The notes beneath the pieces are model-generated. The model was not told the origin of the DNA. It searched no databases and worked only from the letters and a program-made list of their open reading frames with translations. The translations under genes were made by a program, and so were the position numbers. This document shows, piece by piece, positions 1 to 23,387 of a stretch of DNA of 64,000 bases. This DNA is from a virus (taxonomy: Duplodnaviria; Caudoviricetes): positions 32,001 to 96,000 of the IMG/VR virus record IMGVR_UViG_3300020577_010124. One strand, written 5' to 3'. Within the stretch, counting starts at the first letter, position 1. Every line of letters starts with the position of its first letter.

Positions 1-5
1 GACTT

Positions 6-974
6 ATGAAAATAGTTGTAACTGGCGGAGCGGGGTTTATTGGTTCAAATTTTATTCGATTACTTCTTCGCGCTGATAAATCAGTAAGAGTTGTTAATGT
101 TGATAAGCTTACTTATGCAGGAAGCCTTGCTTCGGTTTCTGATTTAGACCCCAATAGACACTCCTTAATACTTGCAGATATTTGCGATAAATCAGGAATG
201 TCTTCTATAATAGAACAAGGCGATGTTGTTGTTAATTTTGCGGCAGAAAGTCATGTAGATAATTCTATTGCAAATGCTAACGTGTTTTTAGAAACAAACA
301 TAACAGGAGTTCAAAATCTTCTTACAGTAAGTCGAGAAAAAGAAGCCGCTTTGTTTTTGCAAGTTTCTACAGACGAAGTGTATGGTTCCTTGGATTATCA
401 CCAATGCTCTTCTAAAGAAACCGATGTTCTTATTCCTTCTTCTCCTTATAGCGCTTCTAAAGCAGCAGGCGAGATGATGTGCTTTGCTGCCATGAAAACA
501 TATGGGCAACCTGTAATCATAACAAGATCCTCAAATAACTATGGACCTTATCAATATCCTGAAAAAATGATTCCTCGGTTCATAACTAATCTCATGCGAG
601 GAGAAAAAGTTCCCTTGTATGGAAACGGAAAGAACGTGCGAGATTGGATTTTTGTTGAAGATAATTGCGAAGCAATTCTGTCCGTTATCTATGATGGCGT
701 TGTTGGAGAAATTTATAACATTGGTGGCGGCAATGAGTTAATGAATTTTGAACTAACCCAAATGATTCTTGAGCATATGGGAAAGGATAGCTCGTCCATA
801 GAATATGTAAAAGACCGCCTTGGACATGATTTGCGATACTCTGTGGATTCTTCTAAGATAAAGCAGCTTGGATGGAAGCCTAAAACAGATTTTCATGAAG
901 GTTTGGCAAAAACAATACAGTGGTATAAGACAAATACAGAATGGTTGCGTCTTCTTTCTGAAAGAAACATATGA
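6..974 (+). CDS. rmlB: dTDP-glucose 4,6-dehydratase
   Basis: GGAGFIG Rossmann motif, DKLTYAG, AAESHVD, STDEVYG, YSASK catalytic YxxxK, NNYGPYQYPEK, RDWIFVED, GHDLRY. Confidence 0.96.
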   Translation: MKIVVTGGAGFIGSNFIRLLLRADKSVRVVNVDKLTYAGSLASVSDLDPNRHSLILADICDKSGMSSIIEQGDVVVNFAAESHVDNSIANANVFLETNITGVQNLLTVSREKEAALFLQVSTDEVYGSLDYHQCSSKETDVLIPSSPYSASKAAGEMMCFAAMKTYGQPVIITRSSNNYGPYQYPEKMIPRFITNLMRGEKVPLYGNGKNVRDWIFVEDNCEAILSVIYDGVVGEIYNIGGGNELMNFELTQMILEHMGKDSSSIEYVKDRLGHDLRYSVDSSKIKQLGWKPKTDFHEGLAKTIQWYKTNTEWLRLLSERNI

Positions 975-1795
975 AATACCTAATCGTTGGCAATGGATAC
1001 CTTGGAAATCAGATAGCAAAAGCTCTTGACGGAGTTGTATGTACTGAAAAAGTTACAACTCAAAGTTCAATCAGCAGCTATATTTGGAGCCATCAACCAG
1101 TTTGCGTAATCAATTGCGTTGGTAAAACTGGTAAACCAAATGTTGATTGGTGCGAAAGCAATCAAGAAGAAACGTTCTTTTCGAATGTTGTTGTTCCTAG
1201 TTACATATGGAACGCTTGTAATCAATTTAAAGTAAAGATGGTTCATATTGGTAGTGGCTGTATCTATAGTGGCGATAATGAAGGTAAAGGATATTCAGAA
1301 GAAGATGTTCCAAATTTTGACGGAAGCTATTATAGTTGGACTAAGATTGTTTCAGAGAGATTTTTGAAATCCCATGACGTACTTCAGCTTCGTATTCGTA
1401 TGCCAATGAGCGATGAATATAACCCAAGAAATCTAGTAACCAAACTGCTTGGTTACAAAAAAGTTTTGAGCGAACCAAACTCAATAACATATGTTCCTGA
1501 TATGATTGAGGTACTGCGTCAGCTTTTGGATAAAGACGCTACAGGCATTTATAACGTTGTAAATAAGGGACCAATGCTGCATCCTTCGATAATTGATACG
1601 TATAAAGCGTTGACAGGAAATACTGATTTGCTTTATGAAATCATTGGACTTCAAGAGCTTGATAGTTTGATTGTCGCAAAGAGATCAAACTGCGTGTTGT
1701 CTATAGATAAATTGGAAAAACTTGGGATATCTATGCCAGAAGCTAAAGATGCCGTTTATCGTTGTATTTCTAAATACGTAGAAAGCGAGAAGTAA
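971..1795 (+). CDS. bifunctional NDP-4-keto-6-deoxyglucose 3,5-epimerase/4-reductase (NRS/ER, UER1-like; RmlD-related SDR)
   Basis: GNGYLG, GKTGKPNVDWCES, GCIY, EEDVPNFDGSYYSWTK, LRIRMP, NPRNLVTK, PNSIT, RSNCVL: motif set of the plant UER1/NRS-ER family rather than classical RmlD. ATGA overlap with rmlB. Confidence 0.85.
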   Translation: MKYLIVGNGYLGNQIAKALDGVVCTEKVTTQSSISSYIWSHQPVCVINCVGKTGKPNVDWCESNQEETFFSNVVVPSYIWNACNQFKVKMVHIGSGCIYSGDNEGKGYSEEDVPNFDGSYYSWTKIVSERFLKSHDVLQLRIRMPMSDEYNPRNLVTKLLGYKKVLSEPNSITYVPDMIEVLRQLLDKDATGIYNVVNKGPMLHPSIIDTYKALTGNTDLLYEIIGLQELDSLIVAKRSNCVLSIDKLEKLGISMPEAKDAVYRCISKYVESEK

Positions 1796-1796
1796 T

Positions 1797-2534
1797 ATGA
1801 AGGGAGTATTGTTGGCGGGCGGCTCAGGTACTCGATTGTTGCCTCTTACAAAGGTTACAAATAAGCATCTGTTACCAGTTTATAACAAACCAATGATTTA
1901 TTATCCACTCAATACATTGAAAAGCATGGGTATTGAGGAGGTTTTGATTGTCTCGGGACGAGATCATTGCGGACATATTCTTCAGCTTCTAGGAAGCGGT
2001 AAAGAGTTTGGCATGAGCATTTCTTATGAAATCCAAGAAGAGGCAGGAGGTATTGCTCAGGCTCTAAGTCTTGCCGAAGGATTTGCAAAAGGAGATAATA
2101 TCGCAGTTATACTTGGAGATAATATCTTTGAGGATAAGTTTGATATAAGCGATTTTCAACTGCGATCAAAACAAGAAGGCGCTCGTCTTTTTTTGAAAGA
2201 GACAACTAATCCAGAGCGATTTGGAGTTGCTCAAATCGTTAAAGACGAAATTATTTGCGTTGTTGAGAAGCCTAAAACCTATGTTTCAAATCTTGCGGTT
2301 ACGGGATTGTATATTTACGATCAAAGCGTGTTTCATTTTATTAAAGAACTTCGTCCTTCTAAGAGAGGCGAGCTTGAAATAACAGATGTGAACAACCGCT
2401 ATATACAACAGGGTACGGTAAGTTTTCGCATGGTTCATGGAGAGTGGACCGACGCAGGCACGTTTGAAAGCCTTCATCGAGCTAATATTTTAGCCAAAAA
2501 CATTTCGGAACAATCTAATGAATTTGTCTCATAA
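1797..2534 (+). CDS. rmlA: glucose-1-phosphate thymidylyltransferase (short form)
   Basis: LAGGSGTRLLPLT, NKHLLPVYNKPMIYYPL, LGDNIF, VEKP, AVTGLYIYD, RGELEITD, WTDAGT. Confidence 0.94.
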   Translation: MKGVLLAGGSGTRLLPLTKVTNKHLLPVYNKPMIYYPLNTLKSMGIEEVLIVSGRDHCGHILQLLGSGKEFGMSISYEIQEEAGGIAQALSLAEGFAKGDNIAVILGDNIFEDKFDISDFQLRSKQEGARLFLKETTNPERFGVAQIVKDEIICVVEKPKTYVSNLAVTGLYIYDQSVFHFIKELRPSKRGELEITDVNNRYIQQGTVSFRMVHGEWTDAGTFESLHRANILAKNISEQSNEFVS

Positions 2535-3945
2535 GAGAATGGCATTGTGTCTATCAGGGCAAGCAAGGGCAGTCAAGGCTTGTCTTTCGTCTATTCAGGA
2601 TTGCATAATAAAACCATTTGGTCACGTTGATGTTTTTATACACACATGGTTTGTTGATAAATACTCTACTGATAAATTCAACGTTAGCGGTCTAGAGACT
2701 TCAAATGTTTTTGATTGCTCTTTGCAAGAATATCTTGATTGCTATAATCCAGCTTCAGTAGCAATAGAAGATTTTGCTCGTTCTAAATATTTTCATTGTA
2801 ATAATCTATCAGATAGAGTTAGAATTGCTTTTTATGTTATTCATAAAAGTAATCAAGTAAAAAGAGAATATGAAATAGAGAATAATCTTAATTATGATTA
2901 CGTAATTCGATGTCGAACTGATTTGAAGTTTGAAAGAAGACTTACAGAACAAGATCTTGAGTGCGTAAATGATGGTTCTATTTTGATTCCGTCTATGCTA
3001 GATTTTGGAGGAGTTAACGATCAGTTTGCTATTGGAACGCCTACAAGCATGAATAAATATGCGTCTTTGCATAATCGTTTAGACAAGTATCTATTTGTAG
3101 ACGGATTACCTTATGATCCAGAACGGCTAATGAAACATCATATTAATTCTATGAATCTTGAGCTTCATAGATTTCGTTTTGATTATAGTATAGTCAAGAA
3201 AAGTATGAAGTATCCGCCAGGAAAAGGATACATAGTAACTGACACGCCAGAAGTCAAAAAGTATTTGACAATGCAGAAAGATTCTTATGACAGTCAAGGT
3301 TCTCATTGGACAGTAAATGCTAAAGATTATGTAGTTGGTAGTTATGAAGCTCATAATCGTTGGGCAGACTATGACTTGTTATTATTCAAAGGTTTTGATA
3401 CAAAAGGCTTGGTTGCTTTGGAGTATGGATGTGGACCAGGTCGAAATCTGATTCGTTTCAAAGATCGCTTTAGTCGCATAGACGGCGTTGATATTTCTTC
3501 AGTTGTTTTGGACAAAGCAAGAGAAAACTTAGAACACGAGCATTTGCCTATACCAAATCTTGTTCTTTCAGACGGCAAAAGTATTGACAGAGATGATCAT
3601 TCTTATGACGTTGTGTTTTCTGTGATATGTATGCAGCATATATGTGTTCATGAGATTCGATACAATATTTTCAAAGAGATATATAGAGTTCTGAAGCCAG
3701 GTGGATATATGTGTATCCAGATGGGTTTTGGCGGAAAATATGTCGAAATAACATGGGCCAAGTATAAAGAAAACTGCTATGACGCAACAGCAACAAACGG
3801 TTTTTATGATGTCTCGATTGAGAATGAAGACGAGCTAAAACGAGATCTTTACGAGATAGGTTTCAAGAATTATAAGTCCGATATTGCTCAGACAGGGCCA
3901 GGCGATAATCATAGAAACTGGATTTGGTTTCAAGTACAAAAGTAA
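2518..3945 (+). CDS. putative glycosyltransferase-like domain fused to a class I SAM-dependent methyltransferase
   Basis: N-terminal ALCLSGQAR...DVFIHTW...YDYVIRCRTDL...NDQFAIG (viral GT-like family). C-terminal LEYGCGPG, GVDIS, YDVVFS, RVLKPGG methyltransferase motifs. Confidence 0.75.
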   Translation: MNLSHKRMALCLSGQARAVKACLSSIQDCIIKPFGHVDVFIHTWFVDKYSTDKFNVSGLETSNVFDCSLQEYLDCYNPASVAIEDFARSKYFHCNNLSDRVRIAFYVIHKSNQVKREYEIENNLNYDYVIRCRTDLKFERRLTEQDLECVNDGSILIPSMLDFGGVNDQFAIGTPTSMNKYASLHNRLDKYLFVDGLPYDPERLMKHHINSMNLELHRFRFDYSIVKKSMKYPPGKGYIVTDTPEVKKYLTMQKDSYDSQGSHWTVNAKDYVVGSYEAHNRWADYDLLLFKGFDTKGLVALEYGCGPGRNLIRFKDRFSRIDGVDISSVVLDKARENLEHEHLPIPNLVLSDGKSIDRDDHSYDVVFSVICMQHICVHEIRYNIFKEIYRVLKPGGYMCIQMGFGGKYVEITWAKYKENCYDATATNGFYDVSIENEDELKRDLYEIGFKNYKSDIAQTGPGDNHRNWIWFQVQK

Positions 3946-3953
3946 GGAAATGC

Positions 3954-4988
3954 ATGACTTCTCAAGTAGACGTAACAGTTGAAATATCAACAAAAGACAG
4001 ATATTACACGACCTTGCCAATCGCTCTTGTTTCAGTAGCGAATCAAACATACAAGCCTAAAAAGGTTCTTGTTTTTGACGACGGAGAGGGAAAAGATCTT
4101 AGAGAAGATCCGCTTTATTCTAGTATCTTTGCCCTATATGCTTCTAAGAATATAGATCTAGTTGTTATGTTTGGGCAAAAGAAAGGCCAAGTTCATAATC
4201 ATCAGGGCGCTATTTCTTTAGCAACAACTGAATGGATTTGGCGAATAGACGACGACGATGCGCCTGAAGCAAATGTTCTAGAAAAAATGGTTCGTCATAT
4301 TCGAGACGACGTTGGAGCTATTAGCGGTTTAGTTCTTGTTCCAGGCGAGTTTAGCGAAGATATGGGAGAAGGGTCTGGTAAGATAGAAGATATTTTTACA
4401 AAGCCTCATATCCAATGGTTCAAGTTTTCAGGGGTCAAAGAAGTTGATCATCTAAATAATACCTTTCTATTTCGCAAATCAGCAGTTAAGCATGGTTATT
4501 GCATGGAGTTATCACCCGTAGGTCATAGAGAAGAGACTATGTTTACCTATGAGATAAAACTAGCAGGATACAAGCTTCTTGTTGATTCTGAGGCGGTCAT
4601 TTGGCATCTTCGTTCTCCGAAGGGTGGTATTCGATCTTATGAGCATGCATTCTTTTGGGACCATGACGAAAGAATATTCCAAAGAAAGCTTGAGGAGTAT
4701 GGGGTCAAATCGAAGCTAGAAAAACTTATTGTTTTAGATTGCGGACTTGGAGATCATTATGCTTTCAAAATGATGCTACCAGAAGTCAAAGAAAAATACA
4801 AAGACCAAAACCTTGTTCTAGCAGTATGTTATCCAGAAGTCTTTACTGACGAGAATGTAAGACTTATCTCAATTGCTGAAGCAAAGACTCTTGAGAAGAA
4901 TATGGATAAGCATAATGTCTATAAATTTATGATGGATAGAAATTGGACAGGTCGCCTTGTAGACGCATACAGAAAGATGATACTATGA
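3954..4988 (+). CDS. GT2 glycosyltransferase with a C-terminal GT9-like N-domain
   Basis: VTVEISTKDR, VLVFDD, RIDDDD (DxD), GHREET; C-terminal LDCGLGDH motif. Start moved to ATG 3954 (AAGGA RBS at 3944-3948). Confidence 0.8.
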   Translation: MTSQVDVTVEISTKDRYYTTLPIALVSVANQTYKPKKVLVFDDGEGKDLREDPLYSSIFALYASKNIDLVVMFGQKKGQVHNHQGAISLATTEWIWRIDDDDAPEANVLEKMVRHIRDDVGAISGLVLVPGEFSEDMGEGSGKIEDIFTKPHIQWFKFSGVKEVDHLNNTFLFRKSAVKHGYCMELSPVGHREETMFTYEIKLAGYKLLVDSEAVIWHLRSPKGGIRSYEHAFFWDHDERIFQRKLEEYGVKSKLEKLIVLDCGLGDHYAFKMMLPEVKEKYKDQNLVLAVCYPEVFTDENVRLISIAEAKTLEKNMDKHNVYKFMMDRNWTGRLVDAYRKMIL

Positions 4989-5470
4989 AAAGAATAATAA
5001 TTAGCCCTTATTCAAAGAAGCTTAGAAAACTCAAGGCTTCAGATCCAGATAAAACAAATCCTAAGAACTATCCGTTTTGGAAGCTTGTTGTAGCTAAACT
5101 AAAAACCAAAGGATATCATGTTATTCAAGTTGGAGTTGCTGGCGAAGAATCAATAGGTGCAACAGAGGTTAAGCTAAATCTAAGTCTAAAAGAATTAACA
5201 GAACTTCTTATGACTTGTGATACTTGGGCTTCTGTGGATAACTTTTTTAACCATTTTGCTACTTATAATGGCAAACGAGGGGTTGTTGTTTTTGGTCGTT
5301 CAGATCCTGAAATTTACGGATATGCTGAAAACATAAATTTGCTAAAAGATAGAAGCTGTCTTCGTATGGATCAATTTGGTTTGTGGGAATCTGACGAATT
5401 CAGAAGAGATGTTTTTGTAGACTCAGATGTTGTCGTAGAGGCTATAGAAAAACTCTCAGAGCAAAAATAG
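4985..5470 (+). CDS. GT9 (heptosyltransferase-like) C-terminal domain protein
   Basis: IIISPYS...KNYPFW, LSLKELTELL..CD..ASVDN..NHFA...K..VVVFG.SDP..YGY. ATG 4985 overlaps the previous TGA (ATGA). Confidence 0.75.
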   Translation: MKRIIISPYSKKLRKLKASDPDKTNPKNYPFWKLVVAKLKTKGYHVIQVGVAGEESIGATEVKLNLSLKELTELLMTCDTWASVDNFFNHFATYNGKRGVVVFGRSDPEIYGYAENINLLKDRSCLRMDQFGLWESDEFRRDVFVDSDVVVEAIEKLSEQK

Positions 5471-5536
5471 AAGGAAAACGGATAGTTCTAGGTAAATATT
5501 AGTATCGTTTATAGGTACTTTACCTAGGAAGAATAC

Positions 5537-7381
5537 ATGCCCTTTTCAGTACGAGTCCCCGACTCTCTTACGGAACAATCAGACGTAAGTATTTTGTCCC
5601 CAACAGAGGGGCAAGGTTTGATATTTAATCAAACAACTGGCAAATGGGAAAATAGAATTGTAGCAGGAACGTCAGGCTATAGCGGCTACTCTGGATCAAG
5701 TGGTTTTTCTGGTTACAGCGGCAATTCAGGATATTCAGGTTACATTGGCATATCTGGTTATTCTGGTTATTCTGGTAGATCTGGTTTCTCTGGCTACAGT
5801 TCAGTTTCAGGTTTTTCTGGTTATAGTTCAGCTTCAGGCTTTTCAGGATATATTGGTCAAAGTGGTTTTTCTGGCTATAGCGGTAGATCAGGTTTTAGCG
5901 GCTATTCTGGTATAGGAACCTCTGGGTTCAGTGGTTATAGCTCATTATCAGGATTTAGCGGTTATTCAAGTACAAGTGGATTTAGCGGTTATAGTTCAAC
6001 CTCTGGCTTCTCTGGTTATATAGGTCTATCAGGTTTCTCAGGTTACATAGGCCTATCAGGGTTCAGTGGTTATTCTTCTACAAGTGGTTTCTCTGGATAT
6101 TCTGGTCAGTCTGGATTTTCTGGCTATATTGGAATATCAGGATTTTCAGGCTATAGTTCCATAAGTGGTTTTAGCGGCTATTCAGGACAATCAGGATTTA
6201 GTGGTTACATTGGTGTTTCAGGATTTTCTGGCTATATTGGGACAAGCGGTTTCTCAGGCTACTCTTCGGTTTCTGGTTTTTCAGGATATAGTTCTCAATC
6301 AGGATTCTCGGGATACTCAGGTAAATCAGGTTTTTCTGGTTATTCAGGATTAACTGGTCTTTCTGGTTTTAGTGGTTATAGTTCTTTGTCAGGATTTAGT
6401 GGTTATTTAGGACAGTCAGGTTTCTCTGGATATTCAGGCGCAGGTTTCTCAGGTTTTTCTGGATACTCTTCAACATCTGGATTTAGTGGTTATAGTTCGA
6501 TTTCAGGATTTTCAGGATACTCTGGAATAATAGGTAGTTCAGGATTTTCTGGATATGTTGGAACTTCAGGGTTCTCGGGATACTCAGGTTTTAGTGGATT
6601 AGATGGTAATGATGGAGCATCAATAGTTTGGAAAGGCGACTATAATAATGGTTATGCTTATTACCATATTAATGATGCTGTTTACTATCAAGGTAATGCA
6701 TATATATGTATAGGAGGAAGCGGTCTTCAAGGCATTAATCCAACAGATACTAATTTTTGGGGCTTAATGGCGTTGGGTGGAGCGTCAGGTTTTAGTGGAT
6801 ATTCTGGAAGTACGGGAACAGATGGAGGTTCAGGATTCTCTGGATACTCTTCAACATCAGGTTTTAGTGGATATTCTGGTAAGTCAGGATTCTCTGGTTA
6901 TTCTGCATCATCAGGATTTTCAGGTTACTCAGGCGCTGGATTGAGTGGCTTTTCTGGATATTCCTCAGTAGGGTTGTCGGGTTTCTCAGGATATTCAGCA
7001 ACAGGATTAAGTGGATTTAGTGGCTATTCGGCAACAGGTCAATCAGGCTTCAGTGGATATTCAGGAGCAGGTTTGAGTGGATTCTCGGGTTATAGCTCAA
7101 CTTCTGGTTTTAGTGGTTATTCAAGCGTTGGATTGAGTGGTTTTTCTGGATATTCAGGCGGTACAGGTACTGATGGAAATTCGGGATTTAGCGGATATAT
7201 TGGATTTTCAGGTTTTAGTGGATATTCTGCGATAGGAAATTCAGGATTTTCAGGGTATAGCGGTATAGGAAACTCTGGTTTCTCAGGTTTCAGTTCTATA
7301 TCAGGTTTCAGTGGTTATTCGGGCGGAGGCGGCGGTGGAGTTAGTATGGCTTTTGTAATAGCTATGGCTACAGCTTTGTGA
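5537..7381 (+). CDS. Ser/Gly-rich SGFSGY-repeat fibre protein (collagen-like/polyglycine-II candidate)
   Basis: About 45 SGFSGY units. N-terminal DVSILSPTEGQGLIFNQTTGKWEN phage-fibre motif, central WKGDY...DAVYYQGNAY...NP...FW module, C-terminal FVIAMATAL. Confidence 0.75.
   Translation: MPFSVRVPDSLTEQSDVSILSPTEGQGLIFNQTTGKWENRIVAGTSGYSGYSGSSGFSGYSGNSGYSGYIGISGYSGYSGRSGFSGYSSVSGFSGYSSASGFSGYIGQSGFSGYSGRSGFSGYSGIGTSGFSGYSSLSGFSGYSSTSGFSGYSSTSGFSGYIGLSGFSGYIGLSGFSGYSSTSGFSGYSGQSGFSGYIGISGFSGYSSISGFSGYSGQSGFSGYIGVSGFSGYIGTSGFSGYSSVSGFSGYSSQSGFSGYSGKSGFSGYSGLTGLSGFSGYSSLSGFSGYLGQSGFSGYSGAGFSGFSGYSSTSGFSGYSSISGFSGYSGIIGSSGFSGYVGTSGFSGYSGFSGLDGNDGASIVWKGDYNNGYAYYHINDAVYYQGNAYICIGGSGLQGINPTDTNFWGLMALGGASGFSGYSGSTGTDGGSGFSGYSSTSGFSGYSGKSGFSGYSASSGFSGYSGAGLSGFSGYSSVGLSGFSGYSATGLSGFSGYSATGQSGFSGYSGAGLSGFSGYSSTSGFSGYSSVGLSGFSGYSGGTGTDGNSGFSGYIGFSGFSGYSAIGNSGFSGYSGIGNSGFSGFSSISGFSGYSGGGGGGVSMAFVIAMATAL
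5670..6600 (+). repeat. coding tandem repeat block 1 (SGFSGY + 3-6 aa spacer, ~30 units)
   Basis: Mostly 27-nt periodicity with heavy synonymous codon variation. Confidence 0.95.
6785..7325 (+). repeat. coding tandem repeat block 2 (SGFSGY + 3/5/9 aa spacer, ~16 units)
   Basis: Seen directly in the translation. Confidence 0.95.
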
Positions 7382-7388
7382 GGATTAT

Positions 7389-7982
7389 ATGAAGAGATTA
7401 TTAGGAACAGATGTTAGCGGCAGTTACGCTTTTAGTGCAGCAGGTAAGACCGTGACATTTTCTGGTTTATCTTACACTATAACTTTAGCTAATATTTTAC
7501 TCATAACAAATGTTACCGCTAATACTATCATTTATAATTTTGCAGATCCAACAAACGGGGCTGCTAGTTTCAATAATAACATATTGACATTGGATTATGA
7601 TACGACTTCAATGGCTGATGGAAATGTATTACAGATATATCTTGATCTTGAAAGCAATGAAGAGAGCTTGCATGCTTTGTTAAGAAGAATGAACAAGTTG
7701 CTTGAAAGCAATGCAGTAGTCGATAGCTCTTTAAGACAAAGAGTTGTTGTTGAAGCGGCTCCAACAACTGCTGTAACTTTAGCTTCGGCTCCAACAACTG
7801 CTGTTACAAATACTACTGGTTTTGGTACAGCATATACAATAAACACCCCAACAAGCCCTTATGGACAAGTTTCATCTAACGTATTGGCTGTTTACGAAGC
7901 CCCAGTAGATCAGCGTTGGAGAATTGTTGATGCGGCAAGAACGGCCTATGCAGTTGGAATTAGACAGAATTTGACGTTTTGA
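7389..7982 (+). CDS. putative virion structural protein
   Basis: ILLITNVTANTIIYNFADP motif typical of phage structural/fibre-attachment proteins; GAGGA RBS; lies between fibre genes. Confidence 0.55.
   Translation: MKRLLGTDVSGSYAFSAAGKTVTFSGLSYTITLANILLITNVTANTIIYNFADPTNGAASFNNNILTLDYDTTSMADGNVLQIYLDLESNEESLHALLRRMNKLLESNAVVDSSLRQRVVVEAAPTTAVTLASAPTTAVTNTTGFGTAYTINTPTSPYGQVSSNVLAVYEAPVDQRWRIVDAARTAYAVGIRQNLTF
7756..7804 (+). repeat. 19-bp direct repeat (cggctccaacaactgctgt x2, 30-nt period; APTTAVT x2)
   Basis: Exact copies at 7756-7774 and 7786-7804. Confidence 0.9.
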
Positions 7983-8000
7983 TTTTGGAGAATACATTAG

Positions 8001-10847
8001 ATGGCACTTACAAATAAGCTACAAAAAATCGTTGACCTTCCAGTATTTGAATGGTTGAGGTTTGCTCCTACGGCAACAGCAGCCCCGTCTGGTCTTTGTG
8101 CAACAGACGATCTTGGCGGAAGGTTTATGTATTACTTAGTAGCCTCAACTTTTTATAGATATGATCTTTACTCAGATTCATGGCAAGTTTTGGCTCCACC
8201 GAATACGGCTCCTGCTACTTTGATGACAATGAAATATAGCAAGTATTCTGGATATAGAGGACAAGCCATTGCAGGTGGCGCTTCTACGATAACATTAGCA
8301 GGTCTACGGAATAACTTACTTGTTGGACGGACTATTAAGATACTTACTGGAACTGGTGCTGGACAATCAAGAACAATATCATCAATTGCTGAAGCTGTTA
8401 TTGCTGATTTTGGCGTTGTTACTTCAGCCGCAGTCGCAAGCATTGGTGATTCAACAAAGAGATGGAGAATTAATCAATGGGAAGGCTATCAAGTTAGACT
8501 TGTTTATAGTACAGGCCAAACTCAGATAAGAAAAATTCTCTATAATGACACGACTACTTTGTACTTTAATGATACAAACTATCAAGCAATAGATTCATTT
8601 AATAATACTGGTTTCTCGGTAGTCGCTCCTTATGCTGCTCCTATTACAACCGCTGGTTCTCAGACTCACTATGTTATTGAATCTTCTGTTGCAACTGTAA
8701 ACTCTGCTTGGGATACTCAACCTGACAATACTTCTAAGTACCTCATTCAGAGCGGCGGCATTTTTATGTTTTCTTCCGCCGCAGGCGCTCCATTTTCTTC
8801 TTTCCAATGGTACGACATTTTAGCTGATACATGGTATTCAAGAACCGCCATCGGCGGACTTCTTTTGGCTGCCTTTGGTACAGATGCAGCGTTGGATAGA
8901 ACTGGTGAAGTTGGCGGAGCTTTCTTGTCAGGAACATCTTCTGATACTGGTACTGCAAGAACTCTTATTGATTCAACGCAAACAATGACATATGATAGAT
9001 ATGCAAACTACCAAATAAGAATTACAGGCGGAACTGGAATAGGTCAAAAGAGAAGAATAGTTGCAAATAATGATACAACATTTTGGATAGAACGAACTTG
9101 GGATGTAACTCCTGATAACACTTCAACATATTCAGTATATGGAGATACTGATAAGATATGGCTTATGGGAAATGGTAGCTCATGCATGTTTCAGTATTCT
9201 GTTGATTTAGATTCTTGGGCAAGTGGTCCAATTTCTGATGGTGGTGTATGTAGAAATATGTGCGCAACTCTAGTCGGGGGAAGTTCGATTCCTCCTGAAG
9301 AGGGCATAGCTATAACTTCGATTGTTAGAACAACAAGCGGTATAGCAAGCGGCGCAGTTAACGCTGCTGGAACAAACTATATTGTAGGAGATTTGGTTAC
9401 CTGTTCAACTACTGGTACCCTTGGCAGATTTTATGTTACTGCTGTAACAACAGGTGGAGCAGTAAGTTCATTGCAACTTGCGGCATCTGGATCTGGATAT
9501 TCTAACGGTTCTTCTGCAACCACAGGCGGTACTGGATCTGGTTTAACAATAACTTTGACTGTTGGAACTACAGGCCTTGTAACAACGGCTATTAACCATA
9601 ATTTCCAGATAGGACAAACAGTTACTATATCAGGATGCGCTACAGATGTTACATGGAACGGAAACTTTACTATTACAGGAAGCGATGCTCTTACAACTTT
9701 CTCCGTTTCTGGATCGGGAACATCCGCCAGCCCTACAGCGGCAAACTCTCAATCAACTACTGTGATTGTTGATGCTTGTCAAAACTGGATAACAAATGAG
9801 CATGTAGGTAAAGTTGTAAACCTAAATACCGCAGGTGTTTCTCCTACTACTCAGTCAAGAAGAATTACTGCTAATACGGCAACAACGCTAACAGTGGCAA
9901 CTATCGTTGCAGGCGTTAACGGTACTTCAAGATATAACATACAGTCTATTCATGGATTTGGAGCCTATCAGACTAATAAGATTCCAGCAAGAGGCAACTC
10001 TGGCTGGGCAACCGCTGGTACGGGCACAACTCTTACAGATTCAACTAAGGCTTGGACTATTAACCAATGGCTTAACTGTAGAGTTAGAGTTATTTCTGGA
10101 ACTGGCGTTGGAAATGAAGCTGCAATTACGGCTAATAGTCCAACTGTTCTTACTGTTGCCTCATGGCCTAATGCAACTCCTGATACTACCTCTAAGTACG
10201 TAATTTTGGATTCATTTGGTATAGCGACTTCAGGTGCTTTGAATACAATCAATGATACTGCTAAGAACTGGACTACGAATATCCTAGCAGGTAAGAGAGT
10301 TAGAATTATTGCTGGAACAATAGCTGGCTCTGAAGCCGCTATTACGAGCAATACTGCTACAGCTATTACTACTACTATTGGTACTCCTGACGCTACATCT
10401 GCGTATGTCATATATGATCCTCCTGCTCGATCTACAGGAACTAGTTTGAACTGGTTATTTGGATTAAGTAATACTACCAACAAAGGTAAATGGATTATTT
10501 CCTCAAGAGGCGGCGGTTCAAATGCGTTTGATATTTATGATATAACAACAAACCGTTGGGATATCACGCCGTTCTTTGATACGCAGACTGAAACGCAATC
10601 AACAGGAAGCATGTATACATATGACGGCGCAGATACTTTGTATTTTACGAGAGACAATACAGGTCGTATATTTGCTTTGAGCTTGGAGAACTTTACGATA
10701 GTTCCATGCGCTACAACTCCATATGCTCAAGGTACGGCTATTATTGGAAATAGAATGGAAGTTATAGAAACCGAGGACGGTTTGCAGTATATTTATGTTA
10801 TGAGACATTCGGGACAGGAATTCTGGCGAACTCTCAAATTTTGGTAA
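8001..10847 (+). CDS. tail fibre/appendage protein with Kelch-like blades and six repeated beta modules
   Basis: YDLYSDSW, YDILADTW, YSVDLDSW, YDITTNRW blades; repeated I..GTG.GQ.R.I..N..T.L...W...PD.TS.Y; Thr/Gly/Ser rich; GGAG RBS. Confidence 0.7.
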   Translation: MALTNKLQKIVDLPVFEWLRFAPTATAAPSGLCATDDLGGRFMYYLVASTFYRYDLYSDSWQVLAPPNTAPATLMTMKYSKYSGYRGQAIAGGASTITLAGLRNNLLVGRTIKILTGTGAGQSRTISSIAEAVIADFGVVTSAAVASIGDSTKRWRINQWEGYQVRLVYSTGQTQIRKILYNDTTTLYFNDTNYQAIDSFNNTGFSVVAPYAAPITTAGSQTHYVIESSVATVNSAWDTQPDNTSKYLIQSGGIFMFSSAAGAPFSSFQWYDILADTWYSRTAIGGLLLAAFGTDAALDRTGEVGGAFLSGTSSDTGTARTLIDSTQTMTYDRYANYQIRITGGTGIGQKRRIVANNDTTFWIERTWDVTPDNTSTYSVYGDTDKIWLMGNGSSCMFQYSVDLDSWASGPISDGGVCRNMCATLVGGSSIPPEEGIAITSIVRTTSGIASGAVNAAGTNYIVGDLVTCSTTGTLGRFYVTAVTTGGAVSSLQLAASGSGYSNGSSATTGGTGSGLTITLTVGTTGLVTTAINHNFQIGQTVTISGCATDVTWNGNFTITGSDALTTFSVSGSGTSASPTAANSQSTTVIVDACQNWITNEHVGKVVNLNTAGVSPTTQSRRITANTATTLTVATIVAGVNGTSRYNIQSIHGFGAYQTNKIPARGNSGWATAGTGTTLTDSTKAWTINQWLNCRVRVISGTGVGNEAAITANSPTVLTVASWPNATPDTTSKYVILDSFGIATSGALNTINDTAKNWTTNILAGKRVRIIAGTIAGSEAAITSNTATAITTTIGTPDATSAYVIYDPPARSTGTSLNWLFGLSNTTNKGKWIISSRGGGSNAFDIYDITTNRWDITPFFDTQTETQSTGSMYTYDGADTLYFTRDNTGRIFALSLENFTIVPCATTPYAQGTAIIGNRMEVIETEDGLQYIYVMRHSGQEFWRTLKFW

Positions 10848-10859
10848 TGAGGATTAAAG

Positions 10860-11330
10860 ATGATTGTAGCAATTTATGCATATAATGAAAATGGGAAAGT
10901 ATATATATCAACAACACTTCCTCCAAATCTATCTGCGTTACCGACATTTGATTTGTATGTATCTATTCCTTGTCCTTATGTTTTTGTGGATGAGTTGATG
11001 TTCTCTTTACAGAACAATCCAAATCAGGACTATGTTTACCGACTATTGATAGACGTTCCGCTAGAAGTTATAGGTTCTTTTCCTATTGAAAATGGTAAAG
11101 TTGTTGCAAGTGTATGGCTATATCCTGAAGAATCGGGCAGTTTGAGTTTTTCTTTTACCCCAGTTGAAAGCAACAGCGTAAATACTGTTGTTGCAATTGA
11201 TCCTCCGCAACCTATTGATGTAAAAAAGCTGAAAGACTTTTCTGATATTTACTCAAACTCTGTCAAAAAACTTGGAACAGTTAACAAGATTTTGGCAATC
11301 AAAGTAATAATCAGAATAGCGGTTGGATAA
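10860..11330 (+). CDS. hypothetical protein
   Basis: 156-aa ORF with GAGGA RBS filling the gap; no motif recognised. Confidence 0.65.
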   Translation: MIVAIYAYNENGKVYISTTLPPNLSALPTFDLYVSIPCPYVFVDELMFSLQNNPNQDYVYRLLIDVPLEVIGSFPIENGKVVASVWLYPEESGSLSFSFTPVESNSVNTVVAIDPPQPIDVKKLKDFSDIYSNSVKKLGTVNKILAIKVIIRIAVG

Positions 11331-11365
11331 GAGGATTTATTGTCTATTTTCATAACAGGTGTACT

Positions 11366-11773
11366 ATGTCTTATTATACCCTTTCAACTTCTATCGCGCT
11401 AGGCACTAGTAAAACTGGATTGGTTTTAGCTGCTCAATTATTTGATACAAATGGAACTGATGTAGGAACACTTCTTACAGAAAAGTTTGTAGAAATTGGA
11501 CAAGGTAACTATCTTTGGACATATAGCTATTTCCCAGCAGGATTTAGAGGTGGTGTAAAGTTTTATAATCAAGCGGACCTTACAAAAGTTCTTGCTGCTA
11601 GCGCTATAAATCCTGAAGAAGCAGAGACTGTTAAGAATCTTGAAACAACAGTTAACTCTCCTAGACAAATATCCGTAACTGCTCCAACCATTTCTTCTGG
11701 AAACCTTACTATTACTCAAGCAAATTCTTCAGGGACATATAGTGGTATGAACTTGAAAACAGGTGTAAGATAA
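11366..11773 (+). CDS. hypothetical virion-associated beta-rich protein
   Basis: 135-aa ORF; FVEIGQGNYLW resembles the Ig-like GxY motifs of the next gene; TAATG overlap with it. Confidence 0.6.
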   Translation: MSYYTLSTSIALGTSKTGLVLAAQLFDTNGTDVGTLLTEKFVEIGQGNYLWTYSYFPAGFRGGVKFYNQADLTKVLAASAINPEEAETVKNLETTVNSPRQISVTAPTISSGNLTITQANSSGTYSGMNLKTGVR

Positions 11774-13056
11774 TGCAAAGAATCTATATTGAATATCAAA
11801 TATCTGGCGTTTATACCAATGCTTTCTCAGTAAAACTGGCTTCGGTTGACGGAACCTACGGTATCAAAAAGCAAGACGGTACAGTTATTGTAGCTAGTGG
11901 TACATCTGTATTAAATCCATCAACGGGTATTTATGAATACAGTTTTGAAGAAGATGAAAATATAACTTACACAGCTTCCTGGGAAATTGTTCCTATAGAG
12001 GGAGATCTTCCTGTATACTCAACTCAAACAGTTGGTCCATTTTCGCTAACAACTTCCGTAAAAGCTGTTGCGGATATGCGAGGAGAGTTTGTTCAAGGAA
12101 CAACAGGAACTTTATTTCTAAGCCTTGCAGACATACATAGCAATCCTATTACTGCTAGCTCAATTACAGTATCTATATCAAATGCTTCAGATGTTGTTGT
12201 TACCGAGGTATCTCCTGATTTTATCAAGTCTGGTTTTTATGCTTTTGATTGGGATGTTCCGACAACAATCGACCCAGGAGCTTATACTGTTACGTGGAGT
12301 TATACGGCAGATGGAATAAATAGCGTAGAGCTTCAAAGCATTATTGTATCTGCTCCAGGAGATTCAACATATGCTATGTCTCAAATGTATGGGGCAAGAA
12401 TAAGCGATCTTAGAACAGCTTTGACTCAGATGATTTGTTGTGCGCAAAAGATCCCTGTTTATCATGAAGAGGGAATTCCTGATGCTGATAATGTAAAGTT
12501 CAAATTTACATTCCCTCAGTGGAATCAAGCTTATGGAACTCGAATATATAGAAATAACAAACTTGTTGAGAATGGAATTTCTATTAACTACTTTCGAGGA
12601 TATGTTGTATTTGATGAAGCGGTTTCTGATTTTGATGTTATTCATGCAGATTACAATTTCCGTTGGTTCTCTGACGAAGACCTAGACAGATTTTTGTCTA
12701 ACGCATTGCATGTTATCAATTCGTATCCTGCTCAAACGCATTTCGATCTGTTCTATCTTCCAGATAACTATATTGCTGCGTTGCTTTATGGAGCAGCAAA
12801 AGACGCAATCAGAGAGTTGCTTATGTGCTTGCAGTTTCAGCAGCCTCAGCAAGTATTTGGTGGTTCAGAAGCTGCGCAAAAAGCCTTCTCAAACATGGAA
12901 ACTCTTAAGAAGAACTACGAAGAAGAATTCGTTAGACTCCTTGAAATCAAGAAGTTTGGAAAGTATCCTCGAATCAAGACCGTTACAGTGCCTGAGTTCA
13001 CTTTGCCAGGCGGACGTTCAAGATGGTTCAGATATATGTTTGGCGGCGGCTCATAA
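11773..13056 (+). CDS. putative head-tail adaptor/neck protein with N-terminal Ig-like domains
   Basis: Two beta-sandwich units (TGIYEYSF; SGFYAFDWDVP...GAYTVTWSY), then a helical FSDEDLDRFLSNAL...LLYGAA adaptor-like domain. Confidence 0.55.
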   Translation: MQRIYIEYQISGVYTNAFSVKLASVDGTYGIKKQDGTVIVASGTSVLNPSTGIYEYSFEEDENITYTASWEIVPIEGDLPVYSTQTVGPFSLTTSVKAVADMRGEFVQGTTGTLFLSLADIHSNPITASSITVSISNASDVVVTEVSPDFIKSGFYAFDWDVPTTIDPGAYTVTWSYTADGINSVELQSIIVSAPGDSTYAMSQMYGARISDLRTALTQMICCAQKIPVYHEEGIPDADNVKFKFTFPQWNQAYGTRIYRNNKLVENGISINYFRGYVVFDEAVSDFDVIHADYNFRWFSDEDLDRFLSNALHVINSYPAQTHFDLFYLPDNYIAALLYGAAKDAIRELLMCLQFQQPQQVFGGSEAAQKAFSNMETLKKNYEEEFVRLLEIKKFGKYPRIKTVTVPEFTLPGGRSRWFRYMFGGGS

Positions 13057-13610: not shown

Positions 13611-14426
13611 ATGGCAAGAAAATCAAAGCACAAGAAGGTCAACGATAGTTTTGTTATGGCCGAAAATAGCACTTCTAAATTGTTAGTTGCTGTCAGTGCA
13701 AGAAATGCTGGGCAGAAAAAAGCTCTTAAAGCTATTGCAGACAATCAAGTAACATTTCTATATGGAGCGCCAGGTACTGGCAAGACCCATTGTGCCGTAG
13801 GTTATGGTATTCAAGAAATGCTCAAGGGAACTTATGAGCGAGTCATTTTTACTAGACCCTATGTTGAAGCTGGTGAAAAGCTTGGATTTTTGCCAGGCGG
13901 ATTTGATAGTAAGTTTGCCCCTTTCGTTATGCCTCTATATGAAGTTGTTTCTGATTATCTTAGTCAAGATGAAATCAAAGCCATGATCGAAGATAAGCGA
14001 ATCATTGTCTATCCTCTTGCATATATGAGAGGAGCTACATTCAAAAAATCATTTATTGTTGCTGACGAAGTTCAGAACTCTACAATGCAACAGATGCGAA
14101 TGATGCTTACTCGTATCGGAGAAGGTACGAAGATTGTTTGCACGGGCGACGTAGAGCAGTCCGACCTTGGTTCAAGAGTAAATGGTTTGGCAGACGCTAT
14201 TGAGCGACTTCCTGGCGTTGAAAATCTAGAGTTTGTTGAGCTTGGTTATGATTCTTGCGTAAGAGAGAAGATTGTTTCTGATATTGACCGTAGATACAAG
14301 TCTAAGCCATTCCTTAGCGCTGACGATTTGGCTAAGATACAAGAAGAAAATCTTAAGAATAATGGTAAATATAGGTCTAATGCAGAAGAAGCTCTCGGAG
14401 ATAATGAGGGAGACGACTCAAACTGA
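13611..14426 (+). CDS. phoH: PhoH family ATPase
   Basis: GAPGTGKT Walker A, TRPYVEAGEKLGFLPG, LAYMRGATF, DEVQN, LTRIG, GDVEQSD; AAGGAG RBS. Confidence 0.96.
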   Translation: MARKSKHKKVNDSFVMAENSTSKLLVAVSARNAGQKKALKAIADNQVTFLYGAPGTGKTHCAVGYGIQEMLKGTYERVIFTRPYVEAGEKLGFLPGGFDSKFAPFVMPLYEVVSDYLSQDEIKAMIEDKRIIVYPLAYMRGATFKKSFIVADEVQNSTMQQMRMMLTRIGEGTKIVCTGDVEQSDLGSRVNGLADAIERLPGVENLEFVELGYDSCVREKIVSDIDRRYKSKPFLSADDLAKIQEENLKNNGKYRSNAEEALGDNEGDDSN

Positions 14427-18228: not shown

Positions 18229-18822
18229 ATGTACATAATCAAAAATATATCAGCAAGCGAAGTAACACTAAATGATCTTCATATTATGCTTGGCAAGGGC
18301 GAGCAGGTAGATGTTGATATGGTTTGCTCTCGTTATATAGCTGAGCAATCCGCCATTCTCAAACAAAACATAAGATCAGGCGCTTTGAGAGTTATAATGA
18401 AGGACGACCATAGAGGTACGGTCCAGATCAAAACCGCAGAATACGCTCCTCCGCCTCCTCCAATGGTTCATAAGCAAGATAACAGCGATGTTATTGACGC
18501 GGTAAAGCAGCTTGAAGCAAAGCTTGAAAAACGATTGGAAGAGAAAGTTACGGCTGCTCAACAGCAACAGCCTCAAATAGACCCAGCTTTACTTTCTCAA
18601 GCGCTTGCAGCTATTCAAGGCCTTGTCAATCAAGCAGGAAAGGCTGTTCCTTCTAAGGAAGAAAACCCCTCGGAAGAGGTTAGCGAGAGAGTTGTAGACA
18701 TACATAAAAGAACCTTGGACAGATTGGCAGGAAATGCTCAAAGTAATGTAAAACATACAGAGCAAATATCCGATAATAGTAGTGTACAAAAGAATATTGA
18801 CGAACTCGAAGGACTGCTGTGA
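18229..18822 (+). CDS. coiled-coil protein (candidate actin partner/adaptor)
   Basis: Start ATG 18229; small N-terminal domain, PPPPP linker, heptads VIDAVKQLEAKLEKRLEEKV, C-terminal helix VQKNIDELEGLL. Confidence 0.65.
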   Translation: MYIIKNISASEVTLNDLHIMLGKGEQVDVDMVCSRYIAEQSAILKQNIRSGALRVIMKDDHRGTVQIKTAEYAPPPPPMVHKQDNSDVIDAVKQLEAKLEKRLEEKVTAAQQQQPQIDPALLSQALAAIQGLVNQAGKAVPSKEENPSEEVSERVVDIHKRTLDRLAGNAQSNVKHTEQISDNSSVQKNIDELEGLL

Positions 18823-19643
18823 AAGACGAAGAAATTTACAAACAATTAGAAGAACTATGCAAAGATCGAATAACCATAATATCTCATTGTGGATACGATA
18901 AGGAAGGCCAATTTATTAGTTGGTCTGATCTATTTAATCATTCGGTTTTTGACGGCATGATGCTTTCTGATGGATATATAGAAAAAAGATCCGAATCTAG
19001 TTCTGCAAGATTTAGATTATCTTGTAAATATGAAGAATTTGCTCGATGCTTTGCGAATTATACAGGAATAGGTAAGAATATAAATTTAGCATCACATAGT
19101 TACTCTGATAAGAGAACAAATAAAACATATACTGGATATCGTTTAGATTCTAAATCAAATTATGAATTTGTTTTGCAACATACTCGATGGTACCCGAATG
19201 GAAAGAAAATTGTGCCGAGAGACATAATTTTGGATAGAACTACGTTATTATGGTGGTATCTTGGCGACGGTCATTTGAATAAAAAGAAGGCTAGACCAAA
19301 TTATAGACGAGTTGTATTATCTACTCAAGGATTTGTTAATGAAGATATTGATTTTCTAAAATCTAAAGTTGTCGAAAAATTTGGCGAAGATTCTGTCTAC
19401 ATAGAAAACCGAAATATAATCATTGGAAGAAAAGCTCTTTGTAAATTCGCAAAAGAAATGGGCAACAAAAGTCCAGTAAATTGCTACCAGTACAAGTTTG
19501 ATTTTGGGCCATATGTTGATGAAAACTATTGGGAAAAGAGTTTTGAGGATAGACCGCTGAAGTACATAAATGAATACAGACGAAAGAATAAAGTTAGAGA
19601 GTTAAAGTATACAGAGAAAAGGGAGATTAGTCATGATAAGTAG
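18819..19643 (+). mobile_element. free-standing double-motif LAGLIDADG homing endonuclease
   Basis: Motif 1 FDGMMLSDGYI, motif 2 LLWWYLGDGHL, with WYPNGKKIVP and LSTQGF as in LAGLIDADG_2 proteins; AT-rich; overlaps both neighbours. Confidence 0.88.
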
Positions 19644-22937: not shown

Positions 22938-23387
22938 ATGCAACTATGCGAAAAATTCAATTTTGCCGCCAAGCTTCTTGTTGAAGCTAATCTCGAAAGA
23001 CAAGAAAATATTATGAGAGAGAATCCGACGCTTGGACCTAAAGCGTTGGCAAAAGAATTTTGTACAGTTAAATTATCTTCAGGTCGAAGAAGCGGAACTT
23101 CATATACAGCAATTGATTTAGCGGTTTCGTTCTTTAAGAAACCACTTATACTTTGCGCAAATGAAGCAATGGCTAAGCTTTTGAAGAAACAAATAGCTGC
23201 CAAAGATTCAAATAATTCTTATGTTGTTTGTTCTGTATTTAATAATCTTACAATGCAAGGTCTATCTCCTGATGCTGTTATCATAGATGGCGCAGGGATG
23301 GTTCCTTCATCTAGGATAGAAGATATATACGATATGTTCAAAATATCAGTTGTCAATGCTCAGGGTTGTTTTATATTTTTGGGGTAA
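22938..23387 (+). CDS. degenerate terminase-ATPase-like P-loop protein
   Basis: GRRSGTS (Walker A Lys replaced), AVIIDGA (Walker B Glu replaced); AAGGAG RBS. Confidence 0.55.
   Translation: MQLCEKFNFAAKLLVEANLERQENIMRENPTLGPKALAKEFCTVKLSSGRRSGTSYTAIDLAVSFFKKPLILCANEAMAKLLKKQIAAKDSNNSYVVCSVFNNLTMQGLSPDAVIIDGAGMVPSSRIEDIYDMFKISVVNAQGCFIFLG

Follow-up and report, generated by a model that had tools for sequence, protein, structure and literature searches.

A candidate phage-encoded O-glycosylation system beside proline-poor collagen-like fibre genes of a megaphage

Why would a tailed phage carry genes for making an activated sugar, together with a set of glycosyltransferases (GTs), directly in front of a gene for a fibre protein? 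This question is raised by positions 6 to 7,381 of a 64,000-nucleotide (nt) stretch, here called the window, which comprises bases 32001-96000 of the 170,562-bp IMG/VR virus record IMGVR_UViG_3300020577_010124 (Duplodnaviria; Caudoviricetes). The record is about 34% complete according to CheckV, which corresponds to a genome of roughly half a megabase for this uncultured freshwater phage. An original prediction, made from the letters of the window and its open reading frames (ORFs), had described the region as a self-contained system that coats an adjacent Ser-rich fibre with a rhamnose glycan. The analysis given below indicates that this region is probably the downstream half of a phage-encoded O-glycosylation system of about 15 kb, acting on the phage's own collagen-like fibres. 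The features in question are as follows (coordinates are those of the window unless marked genome; aa, amino acids).

6 to 974, + strand: RmlB, dTDP-glucose 4,6-dehydratase, 322 aa (TIGR01181, 426 bits against a cut-off of 365)
971 to 1795, + strand: NRS/ER (UGER)-type NDP-4-keto-6-deoxyglucose 3,5-epimerase/4-reductase, 274 aa, overlapping RmlB by 4 nt
1797 to 2534, + strand: RmlA, short-form glucose-1-phosphate thymidylyltransferase, 245 aa (PF00483, 1.2e-54), after a 1-nt gap
2518 to 3945 (start maybe 2539), + strand: DUF7796 GT-A-like domain (aa 4-236, PF25072) fused to a class I S-adenosylmethionine (SAM) methyltransferase (aa 295-400, PF13649)
3954 to 4988 (best start ATG 3954), + strand: GT2, with a GT-A domain (aa 7-250, PF00535, 4e-13) and a small, conserved alpha/beta C-terminal domain (aa 256-344)
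4985 to 5470 (best start ATG 4985), + strand: stand-alone C-terminal (nucleotide-sugar-binding) half of a GT9-type GT-B enzyme, 161 aa, joined to GT2 by an ATGA overlap
5488 to 5527, + strand: hairpin read from the sequence, with a 9-bp perfect stem (CTAGGTAAA ... TTTACCTAG) and a 22-nt loop
5537 to 7381, + strand: 614-aa collagen-like fibre (PF01391, 1.8e-43), the proposed O-glycan acceptor, 66 nt after the GT9-half gene
7389 to 7982, + strand: 197-aa protein, a likely virion component (phrog_5838 'virion structural protein', 1.8e-10)

The enzyme genes and the adjoining collagen-like gene

It was found that the six enzyme genes (RmlB, NRS/ER, RmlA, the GT-like protein with its methyltransferase, GT2 and the GT9-like protein) abut or are coupled on the + strand at window 6-5470, just as predicted, and the 66-nt gap to the fibre gene was likewise confirmed. 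The fibre itself had been described as a Ser-rich acceptor. Ser indeed makes up 27.7% of its residues, next to 27.5% Gly, 4 Pro and 20 charged residues, but the description needs correcting in that the protein is a proline-poor, collagen-like G-X-Y repeat with Ser at Y. An N-terminal module of about 40 aa is followed by two G-X-Y blocks placed around a non-repeat insert of about 60 aa, and the protein ends in a short hydrophobic tail. The repeat contains 53 nonamers of the form G-F-S-G-Y-S-(G/S/A)-x-S, in which the three Y positions hold Ser in 53/53, 43/53 and 37/53 units. At the head of the third triplet, Gly stands in 32 units, Ser in 17 and Ala in the other 4; the register is kept, and the longest pure run is 15 triplets. 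The 614-aa fibre does not carry the known stabilisers of a collagen, Pro or hydroxyproline (Hyp) and charge pairs; in bacterial collagens, on average, Pro occupies 19% of the X positions and Thr 31.6% of the Y positions (PMC8968730). The 37 copies of SGFSGYS are encoded by about 35 distinct DNA strings with diverse repeat codons, and therefore selection acts on the protein and keeps the repeat at that level.

Two more collagen-like fibres are encoded in the record, one of 2562 aa (genome 8176-15864) and one of 617 aa (genome 18204), so that three G-X-Ser fibre genes in total flank the cluster enzymes. The N-terminal module of the 614-aa fibre is common to the 617-aa fibre (49% identity) and to the gene at the same position in relatives. 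In the 2562-aa fibre, G-X-S blocks alternate with six or more globular 'bead' domains, which are related to one another and each about 110 aa long, and the same domain is present in the 617-aa fibre. Pfam searches at E <= 1 returned nothing for the bead domain or for the C-terminal domain of the 617-aa fibre, and for the insert of the 614-aa fibre only a sub-threshold Collagen match at its edge (E 0.57). An impression that this insert (aa ~375-430) might resemble CBM5/12 chitin-binding modules was unsupported by Pfam and was dropped. The 3' arm of the hairpin in the 66-nt spacer abuts or runs into the AGGAAG ribosome-binding site of the 614-aa fibre gene, and each arm occurs once in the 170 kb. 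The 197-aa protein has homologues of 65-71% identity at the same position, directly after the fibre gene, in two related loci described below (L014 and L171).

The two genes immediately upstream of the spacer encode the GT2 and the GT9-half proteins. The AlphaFold2 (AF2) model of GT2 has a predicted local distance difference test (pLDDT) score of 90, and its Foldseek matches are generic GT-A enzymes (ppGalNAc-T, TarP, RmlT). The family retains the DD, RVDDD and HREE motifs, and its C-terminal domain contains an invariant L-x(2)-G-x-G-D (consensus LDCGLGDH). The protein originally read as a GT9 transferase is indeed of GT9 type, although only the C-terminal half is present: it covers profile positions 119-221 of 247 and does not have the two-domain GT9 layout. 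The window protein alone scores 20.3 bits, under the Pfam cut-off of 22 bits; PF01075 is matched by 17 of 19 family members (best 1.3e-9), and the family profile aligns to residues 180-294 of WaaC (6e-5). On the strength of the C-terminal motif and the gene linkage, the C-terminal domain of GT2 and the GT9-half may together form a split GT-B enzyme. A profile of the GT2 C-terminal domain (aa 250-344) gave no significant match in the PDB and matched no solved GT9 N-domain.

The gene before this pair encodes the DUF7796 domain and a methyltransferase. The AF2 model of the former (aa 1-260) has a pLDDT of 87.7, and its top Foldseek matches are retaining GT6 enzymes of the GT-A fold (E ~1e-6, template modelling score 0.43-0.46). 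Because the model most resembles these enzymes, the earlier label 'GT-like' is a fair one. Relatives of DUF7796 are mostly stand-alone proteins of about 245 aa, and therefore the fusion to a methyltransferase is lineage-specific.

The first three genes would supply the rhamnose donor. The top PDB match of RmlB is 6bi4 (1.4e-98), with Mimivirus R141 (6vlo) weaker at 1.7e-64, and that of RmlA is the 269-aa thymidylyltransferase 3hl3, matched over the full length (1.2e-80). Both enzymes are of the bacterial dTDP type, as their resemblance to 6bi4 and 3hl3 indicates; the RmlA score of 242 bits against TIGR01207 is under the equivalog cut-off of 360 because the enzyme is a short form. The protein encoded at 971-1795 is RmlD-like by Pfam and NRS/ER by structure matches, and its identity as an NRS/ER enzyme, which had been proposed at the outset, was borne out. 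Its full-length PDB matches are Arabidopsis NRS/ER (4qqr, 2.9e-44) and Mimivirus L780 (7jid, 1.8e-37), whereas true RmlD structures match at only 5e-7 or weaker and the score against the RmlD equivalog TIGR01214 is 53.8 bits (cut-off 224). The catalytic residues of L780 are Cys108 and Lys175 (PMC9614988). When the phage protein was aligned to 7jid, C97 fell on Cys108 and K158 on Lys175, and these two residues, plus Y121 and K125 of the short-chain dehydrogenase/reductase (SDR) Y-x3-K motif, are invariant in a 15-sequence alignment (A1). No match to RmlC (PF00908) was found at E <= 1 in the 170-kb record, in a search whose control was positive in 11 of 14 genomes, and the 170 kb encode no SDR sugar-nucleotide enzymes other than RmlB and NRS/ER. 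As judged from these comparisons, the NRS/ER-type enzyme stands in for RmlC plus RmlD, and RmlA, RmlB and NRS/ER make up a predicted three-enzyme route from glucose-1-phosphate to dTDP-L-rhamnose without RmlC or RmlD.

The nearest named relatives of the NRS/ER protein are from DPANN archaea and Patescibacteria, not from eukaryotes. A tblastn search against GenBank phages gave three weak gut-phage matches and nothing else; viral NRS/ER loci were obtained by an alignment-based search, a single-sequence search having given none. The closest relative (75-79% identity) is on a 17.9-kb contig.

The cluster does not begin at base 6 but continues upstream of the window. The start of RmlB overlaps the end of a 253-aa GT-A-like ORF, and before that lies an ORF of 2990 aa. 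Pfam tiling of the latter gave 12 catalytic domains, namely GT2 six times, GT17 three times, Methyltransf_24 twice and an FkbM methyltransferase once, plus sub-threshold matches to O-methyltransferase and TylF. The 253-aa ORF is weakly similar to GT2 domains and has no Pfam match at E <= 1. About 790 nt before window base 1 there is a run of nine A residues (L003:15205-15213, genome 31205-31213), and the 2990-aa ORF stops two codons past it (TTC AAA AAA AAA CAC TTG TAA). A -1 slip on A-AAA-AAA would read into ...KKTLVIGRNWKF..., the missing first beta-strand of the 253-aa ORF, which otherwise has only a TTG start located inside its fold. The run shows no indel in three metagenome assemblies, and contigs of all three span it without gaps. 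Either one more GT domain is added here by programmed frameshifting or by slippage during transcription, or the 253-aa ORF is a truncated GT.

The domains of the 2990-aa protein also bear on a very improbable alternative, in which the transferases hypermodify the phage DNA with sugars as a protection against restriction. The classical GTs of phages are DNA glucosyltransferases (PMC9614988), and the 2990-aa protein has a weak match to a TET-associated GT (E 3e-4, below the cut-off). However, no hydroxymethyl-pyrimidine synthesis genes adjoin the cluster, the FkbM and Methyltransf_24 domains and the sub-threshold O-methyltransferase and TylF matches suggest that sugars are methylated, and the number of GT domains, nine, fits an oligosaccharide better than a single DNA-linked sugar. 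The genes also lie in the late structural block, and modification of DNA would leave their linkage to fibre genes unexplained. The original terms 'self-contained' and 'host-independent' were too strong: within the 170-kb fragment the phage encodes a route to dTDP-rhamnose and to no other donor, while the GT17, GT4 and GT9-type domains need other donors, and independence of the host holds for rhamnose at most.

Linkage of the GT2 and GT9-half genes to collagen-like fibres

As a check on the original prediction, it had been proposed beforehand to see whether relatives that have the repeat protein also have GT genes, and the outcome was strongly positive. The GT9-half was found in more than 572 viral loci, and GT2 lies directly upstream of it in 79 of the best 80. 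Among 60 dereplicated GT9-half clusters, 32 have a collagen-like ORF in their flanks, on the same strand in 31 of these 32 cases and within 70 nt in 14. In comparison, only 2 of 73 control loci have such an ORF (Fisher p = 5e-12), the controls being NRS/ER-seeded loci from other large-virus contigs without the pair, in regions unchecked for structural genes. The collagen-like ORFs near the GT pair have Ser at 74% and Thr at 12% of Y positions, and X varies (Y, F, I, T, W, E, P).

A further search was seeded with the fibre. Of the 74 viral loci that it gave, 47 have GT2 beside the fibre (22 of 40 clusters after dereplication), and loci with GT2 usually also carry the GT9-half and a further GT2; many of them are from small phages, some of them with complete genomes of 72-93 kb. 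Of the records without GT2 in the fibre flanks, five carry it elsewhere on the contig. All 5 records that are at least 90% complete have GT2 (three are previously known positives); in one near-complete record without GT2 near the fibre, and in another at 97%, it is found elsewhere. Absence of GT2 in this search is thus confined to fragments.

A minimal form of the module is present in the cultured Methylophilaceae phage P19250A (KX815270.1, 38.7 kb), which has a run of host-specificity protein J, tail fibre, gp21, gp22, gp23, gp24 (SAM methyltransferase), gp25 (GT2) and gp26 (GT9-half). The 1201-aa gp23 (L250:7750-11355) is a G-X-S collagen-like fibre, in which 225 of the 281 G-X-Y triplets have Ser at Y. 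It is annotated as a 'tail length tape-measure protein' but is unlikely to be a real tape measure, because its gene comes after the J gene. The window methyltransferase and gp24 share only generic class I similarity. Two other loci (L208 and L211, 3535-7515) have a 1326-aa G-P-T collagen-like protein beside the same GT pair, with Pro at X in 199 and Thr at Y in 267 triplets. In five further records (G010, G021, G022, G008 and G011, the records of L139, L146, L149, L105 and L150), the GT2 homologue is inside ORFs of 1592-2041 aa, as the C-terminal or another part. The genomes concerned are about 72-75 kb long, two of them complete as shown by terminal repeats, except for two that are fragments; therefore, very large multi-GT proteins are not restricted to megaphages. 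Searching 185,579 prokaryote genomes gave the GT9-half in six short contigs of metagenome-assembled genomes (MAGs), and on this evidence the GT pair is essentially virus-only.

Gene order is conserved in four related megaphage lineages (L004, L005-8, L009 and L014), identified among NRS/ER-seeded viral loci on contigs of 187-494 kb, except that the L004 record is 4.7 kb. The order is giant GT, RmlB, NRS/ER, RmlA, GT2, GT9-half and a protein with the N-terminal module of the fibre; the DUF7796-methyltransferase gene is missing in L004-L009. SGFSGY fibres lie within about 20 kb of the cluster in 4/4 of the syntenic megaphage records that were searched (three lineages, leaving out the 4.7-kb L004). 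In L014 (IMGVR_UViG_3300045125_000158), nearly every gene is in two or three frames, RmlB for example being in three pieces, which looks like homopolymer-error-prone assembly rather than real pseudogenes; because of the many broken frames, L014 was used for gene order only.

The rhamnose genes are less constant than the GT pair. In locus L171 (IMGVR_UViG_3300033067_002502, 170 kb), the GT9-half occurs together with a GT fusion of 722 aa and a G-X-S fibre of 737 aa; identities are 55-58% for GT2 and the GT9-half and 71-73% for the two downstream proteins, and there are neither rhamnose genes nor a giant enzyme within the upstream flank of about 10 kb that was fetched. Rhamnose genes are also missing in all the small phages. 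Therefore, the rhamnose and giant-GT block appears to be an insertable accessory, and it is the GT2/GT9-half pair, not the rhamnose genes, that forms the conserved core.

Several observations weigh against fibre glycosylation. A collagen triple helix is only putative for the 614-aa fibre, which has Ser or Ala at 21/53 of the third-triplet Gly positions. From gene linkage and homology we infer protein glycosylation itself, no domain is assigned as a rhamnosyltransferase, and the donors and acceptors of the transferases are predicted only. About 40% of the longer GT-pair loci are without a collagen-like gene within 10 kb; 2 of 10 records without a nearby one had one further away, and two large incomplete records (200 kb at 58% and 62 kb at 77%) gave no collagen-like gene with this query. 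The linkage is thus asymmetric, and the GT pair may have other acceptors. The L005 lineage retains the N-terminal module, but no collagen repeat, in the gene that follows the GT9-half. Finally, at about 34% completeness, absences within the 170-kb fragment are weak evidence.

Genomic setting and other possible targets

The asymmetry just described draws attention to other proteins of the virion. The long ORFs of the record are nearly all on the + strand, and the following genes place the cluster among those for structural proteins.

genome 3482-4384, + strand: major head protein (phrog_2522, 3e-65)
20719: Mu gp36-like, weak (E 5.5e-4, below the cut-off)
23366 to 24559, + strand: weak GT4-like protein (PF13692, 2.1e-5, below the cut-off; phrog_2170 glycosyltransferase, 5e-4), just upstream of the tail-tube gene
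25157 to 26221, + strand: tail tube
42270 to 43367, + strand: GT4 glycosyltransferase (PF13692, 55.6 bits, and PF00534, 48 bits, both above cut-offs), between giant structural genes

GT genes thus lie between and around the head-protein and tail-tube genes, all on one strand and so inside the structural operon, and the glycosylation cluster sits within the morphogenesis block. Two GT4 genes had originally been noted among the tail genes; the one at 42270-43367 stands at 55.6 bits, whereas the one at 23366-24559 is weak (E 2e-5).

This setting would also suit transferases that glycosylate capsid, tail tube or giant adhesins, as in mycobacteriophages, with the collagen genes merely neighbours in a structural operon. 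We regard this as rather unlikely as the whole explanation, although it is compatible with glycosylation of the fibres and does not exclude it. A further GT (phrog_2170, 1.6e-26) directly follows the major head protein gene and has no clear similarity to the weak GT4, the GT4 genes lie among tail and adhesin genes, and some GT-pair loci have no collagen genes. The acceptors in mycobacteriophages are C-terminal tails of capsid and tail-tube proteins, according to the statements of Freeman et al. (2023) quoted in PMC12619734. Against a role of the fibres as mere neighbours, the collagen-like gene, when found, abuts the pair or is within a few kb, a hydroxy residue is kept at Y in 86% of triplets while X is free, and such genes are in only 2/73 of the NRS/ER-seeded controls.

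A second alternative, which we consider unlikely, is that the cluster builds or alters a polysaccharide of the host surface during infection, be it lipopolysaccharide (LPS), capsule or a glycan of the wall; this might, for instance, hide receptors that would otherwise trap the progeny, or keep other phages out. Synthesis of O-antigen and core typically involves rhamnose and enzymes of the GT2, GT4 and GT9 families, the usual target of GT9 enzymes is the LPS core, and neighbours of DUF7796 in the Atlas are auto-named 'capsular polysaccharide biosynthesis protein'. Action on host LPS, which the original prediction had itself held up as the contrary case, is argued against by the absence of transmembrane segments from all cluster enzymes and by the fact that no initiating phosphotransferase (Bac_transf), Wzx flippase or lipid-carrier genes were found in the 170-kb fragment. 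In addition, the genes are co-oriented and coupled inside a head-to-tail morphogenesis block, the GT pair is almost absent from cellular genomes, and a polysaccharide pathway leaves the linkage to G-X-S fibres unexplained. Glycosylation of the phage's own fibres continues to be the reading that we favour.

The region is well supported as assembled. Near-identical DNA is present in runs of two other studies, one of them of river metagenomes, and in a wastewater run that is possibly the source of the record. A single 25-kb contig (X1) covers all of genome 30501-40000, and several contigs (X3) cover most of it, in both cases with zero differences. Because contigs from other studies match in this way, neither the order of the genes nor the repeat gene is an artefact of assembly. 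Among the public runs listed as holding this DNA, none was of RNA. No GenBank phage was matched by window 1-12000 in megablast. Promoter-like sites were not above chance, and terminator-like sites (10, against 4.2 expected in shuffles) are located inside genes. The morphogenesis block also contains an actin-like protein of the volactin family (window 19633-20706; PF25216, 1.9e-62), preceded by a LAGLIDADG homing endonuclease gene (18819-19643), and a PhoH-like ATPase is encoded among the structural genes (window 13611-14426; phrog_170, 1.6e-68).

Proposed mechanism, known parallels and significance

In the mechanism that we propose, the GT2/GT9-half pair would act in the cytoplasm of the infected cell and add the first sugar or sugars to the Y-position Ser of G-X-S triplets. 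The 2990-aa enzyme and the GT-A-methyltransferase protein would lengthen the chains by adding rhamnose and other sugars, and would place O-methyl groups as caps, the sugar donors being phage-made dTDP-L-rhamnose plus donors of the host. The glycan would probably stabilise or hydrate a triple helix without proline or charge pairs, in parallel with the glycosylated Thr of BclA, where the Y-position glycan is thought to supply hydration (PMC8968730), and it would give the virion a glycan surface. The fibre genes here are between capsid and neck genes, and that of P19250A comes after the tail-tip J gene, so that placement on the head or on the tail is conceivable.

BclA of the exosporium of Bacillus anthracis and B. 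cereus is a glycosylated collagen-like protein (PMC8968730, PMC6947953). It is the closest known system: its GPT triplets bear O-linked oligosaccharides on Thr, which contain rhamnose and are partly methylated. An rml operon and transferases adjoin bclA. The phage locus resembles it in having a collagen repeat with a hydroxy residue at Y and genes for rhamnose supply, transferases and a methyltransferase beside the structural gene. Like BclA, the phage protein would form a hair-like surface fibre, and L208 and L211 even use G-P-T triplets beside the same GT pair. Unlike in BclA, Y is Ser rather than Thr and X is Tyr, Phe or Ile rather than Pro, the first residue of every third triplet is often Ser in place of Gly, the system is viral and not cellular, one NRS/ER enzyme replaces RmlC plus RmlD, and no C1q-like C-terminal domain is shown in the phage fibre.

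The original prediction had called the system a giant-virus-like strategy, but the collagen-type acceptor makes BclA the closer parallel. Among viruses, the closest parallels come from giant viruses: a UDP-L-rhamnose pathway (Mimivirus R141/L780), glucosylation of collagen by L230, and chlorovirus PBCV-1 A064R, which has two rhamnosyltransferase domains and a rhamnose 2-O-methyltransferase (PMC9614988). As in Mimivirus, the virus itself encodes the sugar-nucleotide route, and its bifunctional epimerase-reductase has the catalytic Cys and Lys in common with L780; also shared with giant-virus machinery are soluble multi-domain enzymes combining GT and methyltransferase (here the GT-A plus methyltransferase ORF at window 2518-3945) and collagen-like virion proteins alongside glycosylation enzymes. 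In contrast to those viruses, this is a tailed phage with a prokaryotic host, whose dehydratase and nucleotidyltransferase are of the bacterial dTDP type. L230 acts on hydroxylysine and PBCV-1 has N-glycans on its capsid, whereas O-linked Ser of G-X-S triplets is the likely site here, and no sequence match to A064R was seen.

Mycobacteriophages, the nearest precedent among phages, likewise have GTs within the structural operon, where they modify the phage's own virion proteins, and are not known to encode sugar-nucleotide synthesis; here there is a rhamnose pathway in megaphages, a virus-restricted GT2/GT9-half pair and a collagen-repeat candidate acceptor. The bacterial autotransporter heptosyltransferases TibC and AAH, which are of GT9 type, add O-linked heptose to Ser of repeat passengers. 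In TibC both domains of a GT-B are present, whereas the phages have the C-terminal half only, in a gene of its own, and the GT9-half profile matches TibC at E 0.2, too weak to count as evidence of homology. Our literature search found no paper linking collagen-like phage fibres with glycosyltransferases; papers on related freshwater phages mention collagen-like proteins and GTs separately and read the GTs as modifiers of DNA or cell wall (PMC10202952).

We also put forward, tentatively and as a reading that we think doubtful in its full form, that proline-free G-X-Ser fibres fold or stay stable only after Ser-O-glycosylation by a virus-restricted two-gene GT2 plus GT9-half enzyme, possibly a split GT-B, which would then play the role that prolyl hydroxylase has in animal collagen. 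On the same tentative footing, the module would span phages from 38-kb siphoviruses to those of half a megabase, growing in megaphages into a 15-kb glycan factory with a hybrid bacterial and NRS/ER rhamnose pathway.

Giant eukaryotic viruses and, as of recently, mycobacteriophages are established cases of virus-encoded virion glycosylation; if fibre glycosylation is correct, these phages would be a third and much more widespread one. The system would offer a defined repeat acceptor, a phage-specific enzyme pair that can serve as a genomic marker, and a cultured model in P19250A on strain IMCC19250. Annotations would be corrected, since the P19250A fibre is deposited as 'tape-measure' and its GT2, GT9-half and methyltransferase as 'hypothetical protein', and the soluble multi-domain glycosyltransferases and the three-enzyme rhamnose route would be usable for glyco-engineering. 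For the phages themselves, glycosylation would explain how collagen-like fibres can exist without proline, and, in phages that are abundant in fresh and marine waters, both recognition of the host and immunogenicity would gain a glycan layer that has been hidden so far.

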